The notes below the pieces were generated by a model. That model was not told the origin of the DNA and searched no databases. It saw nothing but the letters and a program-made list of their open reading frames with translations. The position numbers were made by a program, and so were the translations under genes. From NCBI GenBank assembly GCA_041640035.1, contig JBEQBC010000003.1, positions 32,001 to 96,000 of the forward strand: DNA of 64,000 nucleotides, read 5' to 3'. Within the stretch, counting starts at the first letter, position 1. Each line of letters begins with the position of its first letter. This document shows positions 26,701-58,842 of this stretch, piece after piece. This DNA is from Candidatus Nanohaloarchaea archaeon (lineage in GTDB: Archaea > Nanohalarchaeota > Nanosalinia > Nanosalinales > Nanosalinaceae).

Positions 26701-27651
26701 ATGATGGATAGTAAGTACCGTGAATATCTTTCAGTATATCTGAAAGGTCTAGGAATGGGTACAGCCGACGCAATACCCGGTGTTTCTGGAGGAACGATTG
26801 CACTCATCACAGGCATCTATCAGCGACTGATACATGCGATATCAGCGATTGATGTTTACACAGGCCTGGACATGCTGAAAGCTCTAGGAAGCGGAGATAA
26901 AGATAATCTCAAACAGGAAATAGACGATATAGACGGCTACTTCCTCGTATCACTCGCCGCCGGTATCATGACGGCGCTCTTCTTCGTACTGAACCTGATG
27001 CATTACCTACTGGCAAACCACACAGTTATCACCTATGGATTCTTCTTCGGACTGATAGCAGCCTCAGCCATATTATTATTCAGCCAAGCACAGCTTCAAA
27101 CACATAGAAGCCGTATAGCAGCTTTAACCGGTTTTTTGACAGCTTTCCTGCTCTCAGGTTATGGAGCTGCCACGCTTGGAAACAGCTTACCAGTCTTGTT
27201 TATTTCGGGCGCGGTTGCTGTCAGCGCGATGCTGCTTCCCGGTATCTCCGGATCTCTTATCCTGGTTATTATGGGGCAGTATGATTTCATGACTTCTGCT
27301 CTCTCAGACTTCACTGATGCTGTGATAAGTATCGGAGACACAGGTCTTGATGGAGTTGCTGAATCAGCTCCTCCTATAGTAGTTTTTGTTTTTGGAGCAG
27401 TTGTAGGTGTGTTTTCAGTTGCTAATCTGGTTCAGAAAGCGCTTGATAATTATAGGCAGGCTACGATGGCGTTCCTTGTAAGTATGATTGTTGGAGCGCT
27501 TCGTGCACCGGTCGCAGAAGTAAATATCTTCCTTGCAGAACAATCAACTACATGGATAACGGTACTTCCGTCCTTCGTGGGCTCAGCGATTTTCGGCGGC
27601 TTACTTGTCGGAGCGGTAAGTTTCTTTACTTCAGCGGATCCTATATCTTAG
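26701..27651 (+). CDS. DUF368 family membrane protein
   Basis: KGLGMGTADAIPGVSGGTIA, AMLLPGISGS. Confidence 0.92.
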   Translation: MMDSKYREYLSVYLKGLGMGTADAIPGVSGGTIALITGIYQRLIHAISAIDVYTGLDMLKALGSGDKDNLKQEIDDIDGYFLVSLAAGIMTALFFVLNLMHYLLANHTVITYGFFFGLIAASAILLFSQAQLQTHRSRIAALTGFLTAFLLSGYGAATLGNSLPVLFISGAVAVSAMLLPGISGSLILVIMGQYDFMTSALSDFTDAVISIGDTGLDGVAESAPPIVVFVFGAVVGVFSVANLVQKALDNYRQATMAFLVSMIVGALRAPVAEVNIFLAEQSTTWITVLPSFVGSAIFGGLLVGAVSFFTSADPIS

Positions 27652-28869
27652 GATGGCCGCGATTCCTCCCATGTTCATCAATCTCTGTCCTTCCTCATGA
27701 TCTGTAGAAATTATCTCTAGCTCTGAGCTCATTTCCTCAGCTTTCTTACCCAGTACATCGACGATATCTCCCAGTTCTTCTAGAGACATGGATTCTCCGC
27801 ATTCTGGGCATTCTATCTCGTCAGCTATGTCAGCTTCTTCCTCGTAAATTCGTTCCTCGTGGCCGTTTTCACATTCGTAGATTGCTTCGTACATGTTGAC
27901 ATCTTCGGATATCAGTACTGTGTCTACAGCTCCGATCTTCATTGCTTCATGGACCTGGTCTATACCGTACTCTGATTTGCCATTATCTGTTTTCAGGTTC
28001 TCATAGAACTTGTTAACGAGGTTGCGCTCCTTGACAACTTGGCTGTCTTCGATAGATTCTTCTGCTTTGTCGACTAGTCTTGAAAGTCCTGCTTCTCCGG
28101 ATACATCCAGGGATTTCACATCGATAATTTCGTCCTGCAGTGCCTGGTGAAGGTGGTCGTCGTCAACAAGTTTGTCCTTCACGAATCCTGGTCCTCCTAT
28201 TATCAGGCCTAGAAGGTTGCCTTCTCGTGCTTTCTTCATGAATGCGTTCTTTGCTTTCTCTGCTATTTCGTCAAGGAATGTCTTCAGCATCTCCTCTCTG
28301 AGACGGGAGAAACGCTGTGCTGACTGCCCTCCGGCCTTGGTCTTACCAGGGACATTAGATTCAAGTGTGTAGACTGTCTTGATACTTGAACCCTGAAGAT
28401 AACCAATCGCAGCCTCGTTCTTATCAGCAACAATCAGGCCGTACACACGGTCATCAACGACCATCTCTTTCAAGGGTTCGAGTACGAACTCTTTGTCGCA
28501 CCTGTAGTGCCGGGATTCGATTGGCTGAGGTGGCTGTACCTCCCATATCTGGATATCTGGTCGTCCTTCAGTATCTGAAACATTTCCTGCGAAGAAAGCT
28601 ACTCCGTTCTCAGGTGTGGTCTGCTCTTCCTTCACTTTACGGCCGATTTTGCCCAGTGCGTCCTGAACATTGGTCCGTGTATGTTTGGACTTGATGTTCT
28701 CTGCCTCGGACTGTTCGCTTGTGATGAAGTCCGAGATCTTGGACATATCGTAACCGGCCGGGATGTAGAGTGAGACCAGTTCGGTGTTACGGCCTCTGAT
28801 ATCCTCGAGGTCGCTGATCAGTTTCTTCAATTGGTACTTGTTCATTCCGTGGTTTTCGTCTTTGCTCAT
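27631..28869 (-). CDS. prf1: Peptide chain release factor aRF1
   Basis: NIKS, YRCD, GGQS motifs, C-terminal Zn-ribbon minidomain. Confidence 0.97.
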   Translation of the reverse strand: MSKDENHGMNKYQLKKLISDLEDIRGRNTELVSLYIPAGYDMSKISDFITSEQSEAENIKSKHTRTNVQDALGKIGRKVKEEQTTPENGVAFFAGNVSDTEGRPDIQIWEVQPPQPIESRHYRCDKEFVLEPLKEMVVDDRVYGLIVADKNEAAIGYLQGSSIKTVYTLESNVPGKTKAGGQSAQRFSRLREEMLKTFLDEIAEKAKNAFMKKAREGNLLGLIIGGPGFVKDKLVDDDHLHQALQDEIIDVKSLDVSGEAGLSRLVDKAEESIEDSQVVKERNLVNKFYENLKTDNGKSEYGIDQVHEAMKIGAVDTVLISEDVNMYEAIYECENGHEERIYEEEADIADEIECPECGESMSLEELGDIVDVLGKKAEEMSSELEIISTDHEEGQRLMNMGGIAAILRYRIR

Positions 28870-53318: not shown

Positions 53319-54251
53319 TTAATTTAGCTCAAATTCGATACCAGTTAACTCTTCGCTTACAGCCCAGAGCTTCTCAGCAGTTTCCTCATCGTAGGATCTT
53401 TCGGAGCTTTCCTGCTTTACAGGGTAGCCACGCATGTTCTTGAAACCGCCGGGACCTATATAATCTCCGCTTTTAGCTTTCTGACTTGTAGCTGCGTAGA
53501 TCATAGGTAGTGCTCCTTTTTCCGCGCTTTGGGCCAGTGCCTTGTTCATCGCTTTCATGAAGTATTTCTTAACGGTGGAACCTTCTTTCTCCGGTCCGCG
53601 TGTCTGGAGGTTGGTTGCGGCATATCCGGGGTGAACAGAAATTGATTTCATCTCCAGACCTTCTTCCTTGATCTTTCTGTCCAGTTCGTAGGTGAAAAGT
53701 ATGTTTGCCAGTTTGGAGTCAGCGTAGACCTGCATAGGTTCGTAGCTTTCCTCATGCATCAGGTCATCGAAGTCTATTTCTCCCCTGGTATGAACTCCTG
53801 AGCTCTGATTCACAATCCGCGGTTCATCAGAGTCTTTCAGTACAGGTATCAATAGAGATGTGAGTGCGAAGTGGCCGAGATGGTTTACGCCTAACTGTTT
53901 CTCGAATCCATCTTCTGTCTCCTCCCGTGGAATAGCCATAACTCCTGCGTTGTTGCACAGGATATCTAGCTTCTGATTATTGGCTTTGAATTCCTCGGCG
54001 AAATCTCTGACTGATTCAAGACTGGCAAGATCCAGCTTCTTGACCTCCAGATCTGGGTCTTCTAACTCTTTCTCTATATCTTCTTTGGCCTCTTTTCCGC
54101 GTTCAATGCTTCTGCAAGCCATCACAACCTCTGCATTTTTCTCAGCAAGTAGTTTGGTGCCTTCGAATCCTATCCCGGAGTTGGCTCCGGTGACTATAGT
54201 GGTTTTTCCTTCTAGATCTGGTATATCTTCAGCTGTCCATTTAGAACTCAT
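53319..54251 (-). CDS. Short-chain dehydrogenase/reductase (retinol-DH/WWOX-like)
   Basis: TGANSGIG, NNAG, VNHLGHF, YADSK. Confidence 0.93.
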   Translation of the reverse strand: MSSKWTAEDIPDLEGKTTIVTGANSGIGFEGTKLLAEKNAEVVMACRSIERGKEAKEDIEKELEDPDLEVKKLDLASLESVRDFAEEFKANNQKLDILCNNAGVMAIPREETEDGFEKQLGVNHLGHFALTSLLIPVLKDSDEPRIVNQSSGVHTRGEIDFDDLMHEESYEPMQVYADSKLANILFTYELDRKIKEEGLEMKSISVHPGYAATNLQTRGPEKEGSTVKKYFMKAMNKALAQSAEKGALPMIYAATSQKAKSGDYIGPGGFKNMRGYPVKQESSERSYDEETAEKLWAVSEELTGIEFELN

Positions 54252-54269
54252 AGATAGAAAATGTAGGTT

Positions 54270-54527
54270 TTATTCTTGTAGATGTTTCGGTTCCAGTGCC
54301 TCGCCATTAAGGATGATTTCTGCATCTTCTTGCATCATAAGTGAGAACTCGTTCTGGAAAAGGCCTAGTAGCTGGCAGTTCTTCCACTCCAAGTCTTCTC
54401 TTTTCATCTCTTTCTCCAGCCTCTCTTCCGGATCTTCTGCCTCGGATACTTCTTCCATATCCAAGTCTGGCTTTATGAAAACTATGTCGTCGTCCCCACG
54501 GCTGAAATCTATCTGTTCTCTTTCCAT
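54270..54527 (-). CDS. Small hypothetical protein
   Basis: Acidic 85 aa, 7 nt downstream of ABCE1. Confidence 0.6.
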   Translation of the reverse strand: MEREQIDFSRGDDDIVFIKPDLDMEEVSEAEDPEERLEKEMKREDLEWKNCQLLGLFQNEFSLMMQEDAEIILNGEALEPKHLQE

Positions 54528-54534
54528 AGATCTA

Positions 54535-56325
54535 TCATTTCTCGTAGTATTCGCCTTTCTGGCGTTGTTCCCGGTCTTTCTGGCTGTCAGGTTTGTTGGC
54601 TCTTGGACGGCCTGTATCCGGGTCTTTCCTGAATGTGATATCCACTTCTTCCAGGAAGCTGTTCATGGCGTCGCCGATCTTTACCGGTTCTGCTGCTACG
54701 CCTTCTTCTCCTGGTTCTCCTTTGAAAACCATTCCCCGGTCTGCTATGTAGTCAAGAAGCAGCAGGTCGTGGTCGATTACCATCAATGGTTTTTCGGATT
54801 TACGGGCGAACCGTTTCAGCATTCTTCCAAGCTCTACTCGGGCCTCTACATCCAGGTATGCGGATGGTTCGTCCAGGAGGTAGACATCTGCGTCGCGTGA
54901 GAGACATATAGCGATTCCGACTCGCTGAAGTTCTCCTCCTGAAAGCTCTTTCAGATCCTGTTCATATAGTTCTTCCAGGTTTAACGGGTTCCCGATCCGG
55001 TTCTCGAATCTCTTGCTTTCCGGGTTCGCGTGTTCTGAGATAGCTTCTTTTACCGTTGCTTTGCTGGCTTCTAGGTACTGTGGTTTGTATGAGATTGAGA
55101 GGTCGCTGGATTCTCCTTCATCCGGTTCTATTCCGCCGGCTAGCATCTTGGCGAACACGGTTTTTCCAAGCCCGTTCTCTCCGAAGATTGCAAGTATCTC
55201 TTCCTCGTGAAGTTTTCCGGGCTTGGTTTCTAGGCTGAATTCGTCTTCTCCAAAGTCTTTCTTGAACCCTGGGAAGCTAAGTACTACCGGTTTGTTCTCT
55301 ACCTGGCTTCTCTTGGTGCGGTCGAACTTGATCTTGTTGCTTCTGAATCTTACATTGTCTGATGGCAGGTAGCCGTCCAGGTAGTTGTTGATTCCTTCTT
55401 TGGTGGACTGTGCGTCGGATACCATTCCGTAACTTCCTGGTTCTCCGTAGAAGATATGGATTCCATCCGCTATCAGATCAAGTGTTGCCAGATCGTGCTC
55501 TACAGCCATAGCTTTCTCTTCTTCACCCAGGCTTCTGATCTCTCCTCCAGCTTTCAAACGCTGTTTTACATCTAGAAAGGAGCTTGATTCGTCGAATACA
55601 TAGAAGTCCGCGTCCTTGAGTAGTGTTGCTGCGATAGATACGCGCTGGAGTTCTCCTCCGGAGAGATGTTCTATTTCTCTATCCAACAAGTGTTTGATGT
55701 CGAGTTTTTCTGCGGTTTCCTCCAGATTGTCTTTCTGGTCGGCCTGTTCCAGTAGTTCTTGTACTTTTCCTTCGTATTTTTCTGGTATTCTTTCGACCTG
55801 CTGCGGTTTGTATGCTTGATCGATTCCTTCGCTTTCAAGTTTCTGGAAATGGTTCTGGAGCCCGGTTCCTCGGTACTTCTTCAGTATTTCGTCCCATTCC
55901 GGCGGGTTCTGCCAGTCTCCTAGGTTGGGTTTGATGTCTCCTGCCAGTATTTTGAGTGATACTGATTTTCCGATTCCATTCTCTCCAATCAGTCCAACTA
56001 CGCGACCTTCTTCCGGTGCTGGTAGATCGTAAAGTCGGAAGCTGTTCTCACTGAACTGGTGTACTTTTTCTCCTTCTTCTGCAGGTAGCTGGATCATCTT
56101 GATGGCATCTTCGTACGGGTATTTGTTGATTGCCATCTTGTGCGCTTCCATTACATCTTCGTCATTGATGTGGAGTTCTTCCTCTTCGTTGATGTAGAAG
56201 CCTCCTTCTTTTCCTGCCCGGTTCAGGGGGTCGTAGTTGATCACTGTTTCCCTTGCCAGGTCTGGTTCGATCTTGTCCTGGTCGATCACCACGATGTACT
56301 TGTCGGAGTTTTTACCTGTTGCCAT
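54535..56325 (-). CDS. rli1: Ribosome recycling ATPase ABCE1/Rli1 lacking Fe-S cysteines
   Basis: Twin ABC domains (GENGIGKS, LSGGELQR x2, GENGLGKT), C-terminal ITFRKDP.TGRPRANK..SQKD. The N-terminal domain has no Cys. Confidence 0.95.
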   Translation of the reverse strand: MATGKNSDKYIVVIDQDKIEPDLARETVINYDPLNRAGKEGGFYINEEEELHINDEDVMEAHKMAINKYPYEDAIKMIQLPAEEGEKVHQFSENSFRLYDLPAPEEGRVVGLIGENGIGKSVSLKILAGDIKPNLGDWQNPPEWDEILKKYRGTGLQNHFQKLESEGIDQAYKPQQVERIPEKYEGKVQELLEQADQKDNLEETAEKLDIKHLLDREIEHLSGGELQRVSIAATLLKDADFYVFDESSSFLDVKQRLKAGGEIRSLGEEEKAMAVEHDLATLDLIADGIHIFYGEPGSYGMVSDAQSTKEGINNYLDGYLPSDNVRFRSNKIKFDRTKRSQVENKPVVLSFPGFKKDFGEDEFSLETKPGKLHEEEILAIFGENGLGKTVFAKMLAGGIEPDEGESSDLSISYKPQYLEASKATVKEAISEHANPESKRFENRIGNPLNLEELYEQDLKELSGGELQRVGIAICLSRDADVYLLDEPSAYLDVEARVELGRMLKRFARKSEKPLMVIDHDLLLLDYIADRGMVFKGEPGEEGVAAEPVKIGDAMNSFLEEVDITFRKDPDTGRPRANKPDSQKDREQRQKGEYYEK

Positions 56326-56409: not shown

Positions 56410-56913
56410 TTATTCGAAGGATAGTTCGTATTCTTCGCCTGTTACTTCTTCGACGACATGTTCGAACTCTTCGTTGCTCATGTTGATCTTTCCTTCGTAT
56501 TCCTCGCTTACAACGATCTTTTTGCTCTGTCCGTCAGGCTTGAAGACTGTATTGATTGACTGGATCTCTGCCGGGCTTAGAAGTCCTTGGATTACTTCTC
56601 TGTTGTCTTCTGATTTCTCGACTATCCGGATTGATTTGTCTACCTGGCTTGCGATTTCTTTTACGATTTCTCCGCCTTTTCCTACGACCTTGGCTCCGTC
56701 TCCTTCTGCTGTTACTATTACGATGACATTTTCTGTGTCGATTGCTTTGATTATTTCGCTGTCGCGGAGTGATCCGTATTCGTTGCTGAGGTCGTGGAGT
56801 ATCCTTGAGATTTTTATGTCGAGTTCTGTTATCTCGCCCTCGTCGAGCTTTTCCTGGCATCCGCTGCACAGGACATCGCTCTTTAGACATACATTACATA
56901 TTGGTGCCTTCAT
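56410..56913 (-). CDS. NusA-like KH-domain protein with N-terminal Cys4 motif
   Basis: PICNVCLKSDVLCSGC, KH loop VVGKGG. Confidence 0.8.
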   Translation of the reverse strand: MKAPICNVCLKSDVLCSGCQEKLDEGEITELDIKISRILHDLSNEYGSLRDSEIIKAIDTENVIVIVTAEGDGAKVVGKGGEIVKEIASQVDKSIRIVEKSEDNREVIQGLLSPAEIQSINTVFKPDGQSKKIVVSEEYEGKINMSNEEFEHVVEEVTGEEYELSFE

Positions 56914-57691: not shown

Positions 57692-58762
57692 TTACTCAAG
57701 CACCTCTAAGCCTAGGTCGTTTACATCGCCGGTGACTTCTGTTTCTTCATCTTCCTCGATATCACCGAGTACATATGGGCTTTCTACACCAGTGACGATG
57801 GATATAACTTGTAGCTTTCCTTCTAGTTCGTCCTTGATTCTTGCACCCCAGATTACCTGTGCTGAGGTGTCAAGTTTCTGCTTGACTCTCTGTCCTACAT
57901 CGTTGATCTCGTTGAGTGTAAGGTCTTGTCCTCCGGCTACATGAAGGAGTGCTCCATTCGCTCCGTCGAATTCTACATCGAGGAGTGGGTTGCTTAGTGC
58001 TTCGTGGATTGCTTCTTCTCCTTTGTTGTTGGTGTCGCTTTCTCCGTATCCTACTACTGCGACTCCTCCTTCGTTCATGATTGCCTGGACATCTGCGTAA
58101 TCAAGGTTGACTAGTGAAGGTTTGCTGATTGTTTCTGTAATTCCCTGGATCATTGTTGTGATCAGTTCGTCTGCTACTCCGAATGCCTGATCCAGTGGCA
58201 TGTCTCCTGCAATATCGAGTAGTTTGTCGTTTTCGATTACGATTGCGGTGTCGACATGCTGTCTTAGTTTGTAAAGTCCTTCTTCTGCTTTGCTCATTCG
58301 TGCGCCTTCAATCTCGAAAGGCATCGTTACTGTTCCGATTACTATACATCCTTCTTTCTTTGCGATCTCTGCTAGGACTGGTGATACTCCTGTTCCGGTT
58401 CCTCCTCCAAGTCCTGCTGTGAGGAATACCATGTCTGCGTCTTTAAACAGGTTTCTTAGCTCTGCACGGTTTTCTTCTGCTGCCCGTGCTCCTTTTTCTG
58501 GGTGTCCTCCTGCTCCGAGTCCCTTTGTCAGGTCTCGGCCGACCAGTATTTTACGGTCTGCGGAAGACATTTTCAGGTGCTGCTTGTCAGTGTTGATAGC
58601 GACAGTTTCAGCTCCCTCTACTTCCTTATTCTGGATCCGGGTGATCTGATTGTTACCAGCTCCCCCAGCTCCTACTACTAGGATTTTAGCATCTTTTACA
58701 TCTTCGAGACTTTGTTTGTCAGCCTCTTCTTCTTGACCAGCGTTATCGATTATGGATTCCAT
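57692..58762 (-). CDS. ftsZ: Cell division protein FtsZ (FtsZ2-like clade)
   Basis: GGGTGTG tubulin signature. PSLVNLDYAD, AR..KAEEGL and VIWGARI resemble archaeal FtsZ2. Not followed by secE/nusG. Confidence 0.95.
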   Translation of the reverse strand: MESIIDNAGQEEEADKQSLEDVKDAKILVVGAGGAGNNQITRIQNKEVEGAETVAINTDKQHLKMSSADRKILVGRDLTKGLGAGGHPEKGARAAEENRAELRNLFKDADMVFLTAGLGGGTGTGVSPVLAEIAKKEGCIVIGTVTMPFEIEGARMSKAEEGLYKLRQHVDTAIVIENDKLLDIAGDMPLDQAFGVADELITTMIQGITETISKPSLVNLDYADVQAIMNEGGVAVVGYGESDTNNKGEEAIHEALSNPLLDVEFDGANGALLHVAGGQDLTLNEINDVGQRVKQKLDTSAQVIWGARIKDELEGKLQVISIVTGVESPYVLGDIEEDEETEVTGDVNDLGLEVLE

Positions 58763-58842
58763 TGTAAGTATCAGCCTGCGGTGTAGTTGCACCTAACCTT
58801 TTTAAGTCGGCATAGGTAATTCTAACCTAGAACAAATCGAAC

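Follow-up and report, generated by a model that had tools for sequence, protein, structure and literature searches.

An ABCE1/Rli1 from Nanohaloarchaea without the Cysteine Ligands of the Canonical Iron-Sulfur Clusters

Introduction

Canonical archaeal ABCE1 (Rli1), as represented by the proteins of Pyrococcus abyssi (3bk7, 3j15) and Sulfolobus solfataricus (6tmf_d), consists of an N-terminal domain (N-domain), a first nucleotide-binding domain (NBD1) with a helix-loop-helix, hinge 1, a second nucleotide-binding domain (NBD2) and hinge 2. The same arrangement was found in a protein encoded on the reverse strand of a DNA stretch of 64,000 nucleotides, called the window in the following, from Candidatus Nanohaloarchaea archaeon of the Nanosalinales (assembly GCA_041640035.1, contig JBEQBC010000003.1, positions 32,001 to 96,000). 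It shares with the canonical proteins the ATPase motifs as well as the Pro and the Arg that touch uS12, but all eight ligands of the two [4Fe-4S] clusters are replaced, neither Fer4 nor Fer4_RLI of Pfam is matched, some of the contacts to rRNA are changed, and the proteome is acidic (121 Asp and Glu vs 78 Lys and Arg). We are fairly confident that this protein is a single, active ABCE1 ribosome-recycling ATPase, with an N-domain that would descend from the 2x[4Fe-4S] domain but be free of cofactor. Although long regarded as essential, the two clusters are probably a scaffold that can be replaced.

Truncations of ABCE1 that lack the Fe-S domain are not known to split ribosomes. The crystal constructs 1yqt, 3ozx and 5yv5 display the same twin-NBD body without clusters (Z 42.3-42.9) and are laboratory truncations, whereas the natural protein described here keeps its N-domain. 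A precedent for a dispensable, non-redox [4Fe-4S] cluster is subunit D of archaeal RNA polymerase, whose structural Fe-S domain has been retained by some lineages but not by others; it is a different protein in a different process, and the clusters of ABCE1 have hitherto been treated as universally conserved. In parts of PMC8153317 and PMC4523923, these clusters are presented as conserved and essential, and the dependence of translation on iron-sulfur assembly, as well as that of Fe-S biogenesis itself in eukaryotes, is attributed to them. The same passages describe the yeast clusters as structural and oxygen-labile, single Cys mutants as viable only without oxygen, and the cluster supply of Rli1 as a target of reactive oxygen species. 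A full-text literature search, with subscription journals and supplements outside its range, revealed no description of a Cys-free ABCE1 or of ABCE1 in Nanohaloarchaea; in passages of PMC6514570, the one paper to contain both, ABCE1 and the name of the archaeal group are mentioned separately. A Cys-free ABCE1 is apparently unreported before.

Results and Discussion

Identity of the Gene and Its Ligand Positions

Sequence comparison identified the open reading frame (ORF) at 54535..56325 (-), with 596 codons and a stop, as the single ABCE1/Rli1 gene of the genome, being an orthologue by descent and not an iron-sulfur ABCE1. The 596-aa protein matched the NCBIfam equivalog NF009945 with 727.5 bits (cut-off 469) over residues 10-595 and profile positions 3-589 of 592, and a phmmer search against solved structures aligned residues 11-594 with P. 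abyssi ABCE1 (3bk7_A, E 5.7e-165, 45% identity). Its second-best NCBIfam matches were to ABCF, at 155 bits far below the ABCE1 score. ABCF proteins (EttA, ARE-ABCF) are likewise soluble twin-NBD ribosome ATPases without a metal cluster, but unlike the protein studied here they have another inter-domain linker and another binding site and carry no N-terminal wedge domain. In a Pfam scan, two ABC_tran stretches were found, corresponding to head-to-tail NBDs, while Fer4 and Fer4_RLI gave no match in the 596-aa protein even at E<=1; the ABCE1 proteins of two relatives, G001 and G036, served as controls and do match Fer4 and/or Fer4_RLI. Named close homologues belong to Candidatus Nanohalobium, Nanosalina and other Nanohaloarchaea. 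Only one ABCE1 match above the NF009945 cut-off was found in the genome (978,572 bases in 24 contigs, 89% complete), the other seven being single-NBD ABC proteins with no more than 76 bits, and each of eight single-contig relatives likewise displayed one match; a second, Cys-bearing ABCE1 in the genome, which the initial annotation had named as a refutation, was not found.

The core of the N-domain, residues 10-82 (56080..56298 (-)), is a Cys-free homologue of the 2x[4Fe-4S] domain, as judged from alignments, an AlphaFold2 model and superposition on 3bk7. A profile built exclusively from 28 Cys-less N-domains matched S. solfataricus ABCE1 6tmf_d with an E-value of 4.3e-5. In this alignment, ungapped over its length, the first motif, I19-EPDL-A24-RET-V28-INY-D32-P33-L-N-R36 (56218..56271 (-)), stands for CX4CX3CX3CPxxR, with C11 replaced by I19, C16 by A24, C20 by V28, and C24 by D32. 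The second motif, V58-M59-E-A-H62-KM-A65-INK-Y69-P70 (56116..56154 (-)), aligns with CX2CX2CX3CP, and the ungapped register places M59 at Cys5, H62 at Cys6, A65 at Cys7, and Y69 at Cys8. None of the eight ligand Cys is left (0/8), and the sole Cys of the whole protein is C474 in NBD2. The initial annotation, given for window positions 56080..56325 (residues 1-82 of the ORF), had described an ABCE1 with all eight Fe-S cysteines replaced and the domain kept, which the alignments and the NF009945 match bear out. Two of its details can be specified: its fifth position, V58, is that of a gapped HMMER alternative, the ungapped register giving M59, and six of the replacing residues are hydrophobic as it had said, the other two, D32 and H62, being polar.

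Conservation was counted in 45 aligned sequences. D32, P33, L34, and R36 are invariant (45/45), as are H62 and both candidates for the fifth position, V58 and M59, and E60 and H52 are conserved in at least 90% of the sequences. The position of A65 is occupied by Ala in 38 sequences, by Ile in six, and by Cys in one. The positions belonging to the ABCE1-type cluster (I19, A24, V28, Y69) vary among aliphatic residues, Y69 being Tyr in 39 sequences and Ile in six.

Distribution and History of the Cysteine Loss

Not a single Cys was found in the first 100 residues of our protein and all of its 120 closest protein clusters (121/121; 65-90% identical), so the loss is due neither to chance nor to an artefact. 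The GTDB phylum is represented by 70 species genomes, all from one order, and ABCE1 was matched at E<=1e-50 in 55 of them, with an assembled N-terminus in 52 (not in G060, G047, and G020). Ligand Cys are absent from 50 of these 52 genomes, comprising 43/44 in f1, the family of our archaeon, and 7/7 in family f5. The two exceptions are G036 in f1, a one-cluster form with five N-domain Cys, and G001 in family f2, which is canonical with nine N-domain Cys (L015) and non-acidic. Aligning ABCE1 across relatives, as the initial annotation had proposed, thus revealed that the absence of all eight ligand Cys is clade-wide at the level of sequence. The gene of G001 (L015:1498-3222) is the only canonical ABCE1 of the order; a SufB/D search of this 93%-complete genome found none.

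From 1.84 billion proteins, the 150 best representatives were taken, the N-domain being defined as a stretch of 85 residues that stops 30 residues short of the first Walker A motif. This definition allowed 107 of them to be assessed but not 42 others, and P0185, a fragment that it had wrongly classed as Cys-free, was not counted; for L015, too, it gave a wrong number in the tree labels, the nine Cys stated above having been counted by eye. At least eight Cys were counted in 95, seven in one, two to six in seven, one in one (P0124), and zero in three (P0076, P0122, P0134). As to the departures from the eight-Cys rule, P0125 has seven Cys and P0147 keeps Cys4-7 and is without Cys1, 2, 3, and 8; P0186, P0193, P0199, P0200, and P0206 depart as well, and one group among all these shows five to six Cys in an odd pattern.

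The N-domain of G036, a member of the same GTDB family as our archaeon, retrieved 25 database clusters. The motif C-x4-C-x3-C-x3-D-P was present in 23 of them and H-x2-[C/S]-x3-C-P in 24, with Cys in 14 and Ser in 10 at the Cys7 position, and with T, M, L, or S at the varying Cys5 position. These one-cluster forms (G036 at L014:1477-3255, P0290-P0313, and P0212) retain Cys1, 2, 3, and 8, whereas Cys4 is replaced by Asp and Cys6 by His. Most of them are non-halophilic and of DPANN type, and for one the source record gives Acidobacteriota. With the Cys-free proteins they share derived features of the N-domain, namely the Asp at Cys4 within DP(I/L)NR, the GGEGF(H/Y) motif, and V(T/M)E(A/M)H with the His at Cys6; unlike our protein, they keep Cys1, 2, 3, and 8, still match Fer4_RLI, and are mostly non-acidic.

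Cys1, 2, 3, and 8 we take to hold the ABCE1-type cluster and Cys4-7 the ferredoxin-type cluster, following also the logic of ferredoxins; this assignment of ligands is said to go back to Barthelme 2007. Passages of PMC4523923, according to which C25 and C61 of the yeast protein bind different clusters, and of PMC8153317, according to which one cluster is ferredoxin-like and the other unique to ABCE1, agree with it. The sequences suggest a stepwise loss by way of one-cluster forms. The ferredoxin-type cluster was likely lost first and the ABCE1-type cluster second, because Asp32 and His62, along with the motifs around them, are common to the Cys-free proteins and the one-cluster forms.

The gene tree unites every Cys-free and one-Cys form with the halophiles in a single clade (100*). 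Trees conflict on the placement of G036: the all-column tree puts it among the Cys-less f1 rows with a support of 90, the LG+G4 tree makes it their sister (99*), and in a tree without the N-domain it stands inside f1 without a starred branch, the one-cluster forms then not being monophyletic with the halophiles. Monophyly of the Cys-less forms without G036, a group that was named after the tree had been seen, was not rejected by the approximately unbiased (AU) test (p 0.672), and the constrained tree was better by 11.3 log-likelihood units. A single origin of the loss of the last cluster is compatible with the AU test.

Family f4 of the same order (G003-G012, 80-93% complete) appears to be without ABCE1 altogether, as judged from its genome sequences. 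No ABCE1 was found at E<=1e-50 in its ten genomes (0/10); the best matches to the ABCE1 hidden Markov model reached at most 102 bits and lay on single-NBD ORFs in 5/5 genomes, and two ABCE1 queries against nine f4 genomes returned weak ABC matches only, as was also the case for G002 of family f3. Release factor aRF1 is present in 8/10 f4 genomes. The two candidates inspected were rejected as ordinary transporter ATPases; L043 and L045 are example loci of the family. SufB/D were found in one of the ten f4 genomes, although the genomes of genus g28 have 14-19 radical-SAM genes each.

Tentatively, the Nanosalinales and their DPANN kin may hold a full dismantling series, from two clusters (G001) by way of one (G036 and at least 23 database clusters) and none (in two halophilic families, where the final loss may have occurred independently) to no ABCE1 at all (f4). 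If so, Fe-S clusters would be dispensable for archaeal recycling, and in one lineage so would ABCE1, which would imply an unknown alternative route of splitting. The absence from f4, if real, would challenge ABCE1 as a universal archaeal factor.

The one-cluster forms also bear on the strongest of the alternative explanations, which we nevertheless consider unlikely, namely that a single metal ion (Zn, Fe, or Cu) has taken the place of the ferredoxin-type cluster at a new site made up of D32, H62, and M59 together with E60 and H52, and that this metal gives the rigidity. The conservation of D32, M59, and H62 is complete and that of E60 and H52 at least 90%, in contrast to the varying aliphatic residues at the four sites of the other cluster; furthermore, Asp at Cys4 and His at Cys6 occur in 23-24 of the 25 one-cluster relatives, 14 of which also have Cys7. 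However, with Ser at Cys7 in ten one-cluster forms and with a varying Cys5, there is no constant set of ligands, and a hydrogen bond between Asp and His together with packing of the Met would account equally well for the conservation.

Maintenance of the N-Domain and the ATPase Body

Nonsynonymous divergence (dN) was compared between residues 10-82 (N-domain) and 95-589 (rest of the protein). Synonymous sites are saturated in most pairs, and three close pairs were relied on, all of them displaying a lower dN in the N-domain: 0.006 vs 0.015 for L001-L020, 0.029 vs 0.075 for L001-L028, and 0.099 vs 0.231 for L016-L017. Only 25 of the 378 pairs passed the filters for dN/dS (dS, synonymous divergence), with medians of 0.245 for the N-domain and 0.301 for the rest, saturated pairs being mixed in. 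Mean pairwise identity is 0.70 for the N-domain and 0.66 for the rest. These sequence comparisons show that the N-domain is under purifying selection; it is not decaying, because its dN is lower than that of the ATPase body.

The full-length AlphaFold2 model was built from 45 sequences, all Cys-less apart from P0124, in which Cys7 alone is occupied by Cys. The mean predicted local distance difference test score (pLDDT) of the model is 89.2, with 90, 92, 75, 89, 86, 89, and 86 for the consecutive 10-residue blocks of residues 11-80. VIA-align superposed residues 5..596 of the model on the complete P. abyssi ABCE1 3bk7 (Z 41.8, root-mean-square deviation 2.9 A, 582 residues), while the crystal constructs without the Fe-S domain align from residue 81-84 only. 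The N-domain is accordingly predicted to keep its ferredoxin-like fold and its docking on NBD1, as in the Fe-S domain, and the fold that the initial annotation had expected for the N-terminus is the one seen in this model.

The contacts of the S. solfataricus N-domain in the post-splitting complex are described in passages of PMC7196836, according to which P25 and R28 touch uS12. The corresponding residues of our protein, P33 and R36, are invariant, and K68, conserved in at least 90% of the sequences, probably corresponds to S. solfataricus K59.

In the ATPase body, the 45 sequences show no variation at the Walker A, Walker B, signature, and H-loop residues, in NBD1 as well as in NBD2. NBD1 has the Walker A motif GENGIGKS (residues 114-121; 55963..55986 (-)), with G114, N116, G117, G119, and K120 invariant, and the signature motif LSGGELQRV (residues 221-229; 55639..55665 (-)). 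Walker A of NBD2 reads GENGLGKT (residues 382-389; 55159..55182 (-)) and its Walker B LDEPSA (residues 484-489; 54859..54876 (-)). The hinge-2 motif RPRANK (residues 573-578; 54592..54609 (-)), aligned to 3bk7, represents the ABCE1-specific ribosome anchor region; R573 and N577 are invariant. In Walker B of NBD1, FDESSS (residues 244-249; 55579..55596 (-)), Ser stands in place of the usual Pro after the catalytic Glu, and the catalytic D245 and E246 are invariant. The DESSS that the initial annotation had pointed out is indeed present at residues 245-249, yet among our protein and its closest homologues a regular expression found it in 16/121 only, against 101/121 with DEPSS and four unmatched, so that it reads as a trait of a sub-lineage.

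aRF1, the A-site partner of ABCE1, is encoded in the same window at 27640..28842 (-) (G000:C3:59640-60842), where a 424-aa open frame without intein matched TIGR03676 with 449.3 bits. Its presence is one of several findings at odds with an improbable explanation, by which the N-domain would no longer be the splitting wedge and ABCE1 would have a reduced or changed role, in anti-association or biogenesis only, with recycling done by something else. The apparent absence of ABCE1 from the sister family f4 (0/10 genomes) and some altered rRNA-contact residues speak for such a change. Purifying selection on the N-domain is, however, at least equal to that on the NBDs, the Pro and Arg contacting uS12 are invariant, the ATPase motifs and the hinge are all intact, and the N-domain is predicted to be docked as in ABCE1 before splitting.

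Iron-Sulfur Inventory of the Genome

The initial annotation had connected the Cys loss with a reduced symbiont freeing ribosome recycling from Fe-S biogenesis, and had proposed to check whether the SUF machinery and other Fe-S proteins are missing. The first is not the case: SufB and SufD are encoded in the genome, SufS adjoins SufD, and there is a second class-V aminotransferase. Dph2 is also encoded, as is Elp3, with CX3CX2C at residue 86; the genome has one radical-SAM gene. In a Rad3/XPD helicase, the stretch from Walker A to DEAH, where the Fe-S domain lies, contains Cys101, 115, 153, and 157. The second is true in part, for PriL was not detected, the best match of its profile to the genome reaching 15.4 bits, below the cut-off, and sitting in a 461-aa PriS-like protein, whereas Rad3/XPD is present with its four Cys. 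The PriS-like primase itself (G000:C3:5535-6920 (-); L057:1150-2532), encoded outside the window, has a C-terminal CPYC...C motif. The motif CX2CX2CX3C was not found in any ORF of at least 50 aa of the genome, and the Fer4_7 profile gave no match at E<=0.1. The Fe-S inventory, as far as gene content tells, is very small. Family-wide, SufB/D occur in 47 of the other 49 genomes and radical SAM in 47/49.

It is, therefore, very improbable that the Cys were lost since the symbiont abandoned Fe-S biogenesis altogether: the tiny inventory, with no ferredoxin-type motif, a single radical-SAM gene, and PriL undetected, fits such a history, but it is contradicted for this genome by SufB, SufD, SufS, and the second class-V aminotransferase as well as by Elp3, Rad3/XPD, and Dph2 with their Cys, and for the family by SufB/D and radical SAM, each in 47/49 genomes. 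What stands of the proposed independence from Fe-S is the part concerning ABCE1 itself; because SUF genes and Fe-S enzymes are retained, only ABCE1 is, by this reading of the genes, uncoupled from the Fe-S supply, and the cell would still make clusters. A similarly slim chance we give to a cluster still being bound through non-Cys ligands or in trans by a partner protein. Ligation of [4Fe-4S] clusters by Asp and His does occur in other proteins, but the clusters known to us keep at least some Cys ligands, residues 1-100 are without any Cys, and no Fer4-type protein is encoded according to the CX2CX2CX3C motif and Fer4_7 searches.

Proposed Mechanism and Significance

We propose for the Cys-free ABCE1 that, as in the canonical protein, ATP-driven closure of both NBDs on a 70S ribosome with aRF1 or aPelota would push the N-domain, which would swing into the cleft between uS12 and rRNA helix h44 and wedge the subunits apart. 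Side chains would supply the rigidity once given by the clusters, with I19, A24, V28, and Y69 filling the site of the ABCE1-type cluster (Cys1, 2, 3, 8), and D32, M59, H62, and A65 that of the ferredoxin-type cluster (Cys4-7), perhaps with a bond between Asp and His. The ferredoxin-type cluster would have been lost first, in a wider DPANN group still having the other cluster, and the second one in the halophilic Nanosalinales. As a benefit, an abundant and essential translation factor may have become independent of oxygen-labile clusters and of the iron supply, while Elp3, Dph2, and XPD, presumably of low abundance, would still be served by SUF. Seen from the side of cost, ABCE1 with its clusters is both abundant and essential and contains eight Fe atoms, and removing its clusters may make recycling robust in oxic, iron-poor brines.

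Several points weigh against this interpretation. The assembly holding the sole ABCE1 is 89% complete. The isolated N-domain was modelled with moderate confidence (pLDDT 64.9), in a beta-alpha-beta-beta-alpha-beta topology, and Foldseek with this model gave no match at E<=1e-3, the top ones, P. furiosus ferredoxin and two ABCE1 entries, being weak (E 9e-3 to 3e-2, TM 0.40-0.45). The high confidence of the full-length model may in part be due to solved ABCE1 structures already known to AlphaFold. Three rRNA contacts of the S. solfataricus protein are not retained, K15 being replaced by L23, N17 by R25, and E19 by T27. The word cofactor-free rests on the absence of Cys from the sequence, and the invariant D32, M59, and H62 and the nearly invariant E60 and H52 may all be ligands of a metal other than Fe-S. 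Finally, oxygen or iron as the selective reason is something that we infer, and SUF has been kept.

A clade with a conserved, Cys-free domain represents a natural experiment, arguing that the clusters are structural and that side chains can take their place. Biochemical and structural work gains from it an ABCE1 that is oxygen-insensitive by nature, and the graded series of two, one, and zero clusters lets the contribution of each cluster be tested. It also bears on a question that a passage of the review PMC8153317 calls open, namely whether cells can replace the function of ABCE1 under limitation of cofactor or iron.

Further Observations

At least 12 genomes of the order have an aRF1 match that breaks at profile position 174 within an open frame of about 920-970 aa, which looks intein-like (for example G007:C10:8060-10834, G006:C3:5232-8003, and G038:C5:13687-16380), while the aRF1 of the window is uninterrupted. 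SufB was found in open frames of 829-890 aa in G039:C71, G067:C15, G047:C58, and G048:C54; in G039 and G067 the match comes in two pieces, suggesting an insertion or an intein.

Around the ABCE1 gene, a Ser-rich ORF of 306 aa at window positions 53980..54900 (+) runs antisense to the 3' end of ABCE1 and to the next gene, and is most likely a spurious frame of an acidic-codon strand. Upstream of ABCE1 and on the same strand, 56410..56913 (-) encodes a protein of 167 aa that combines a CxxC...CxxC motif at the N-terminus with a NusA-like KH domain, and 57692..58792 (-) encodes FtsZ.

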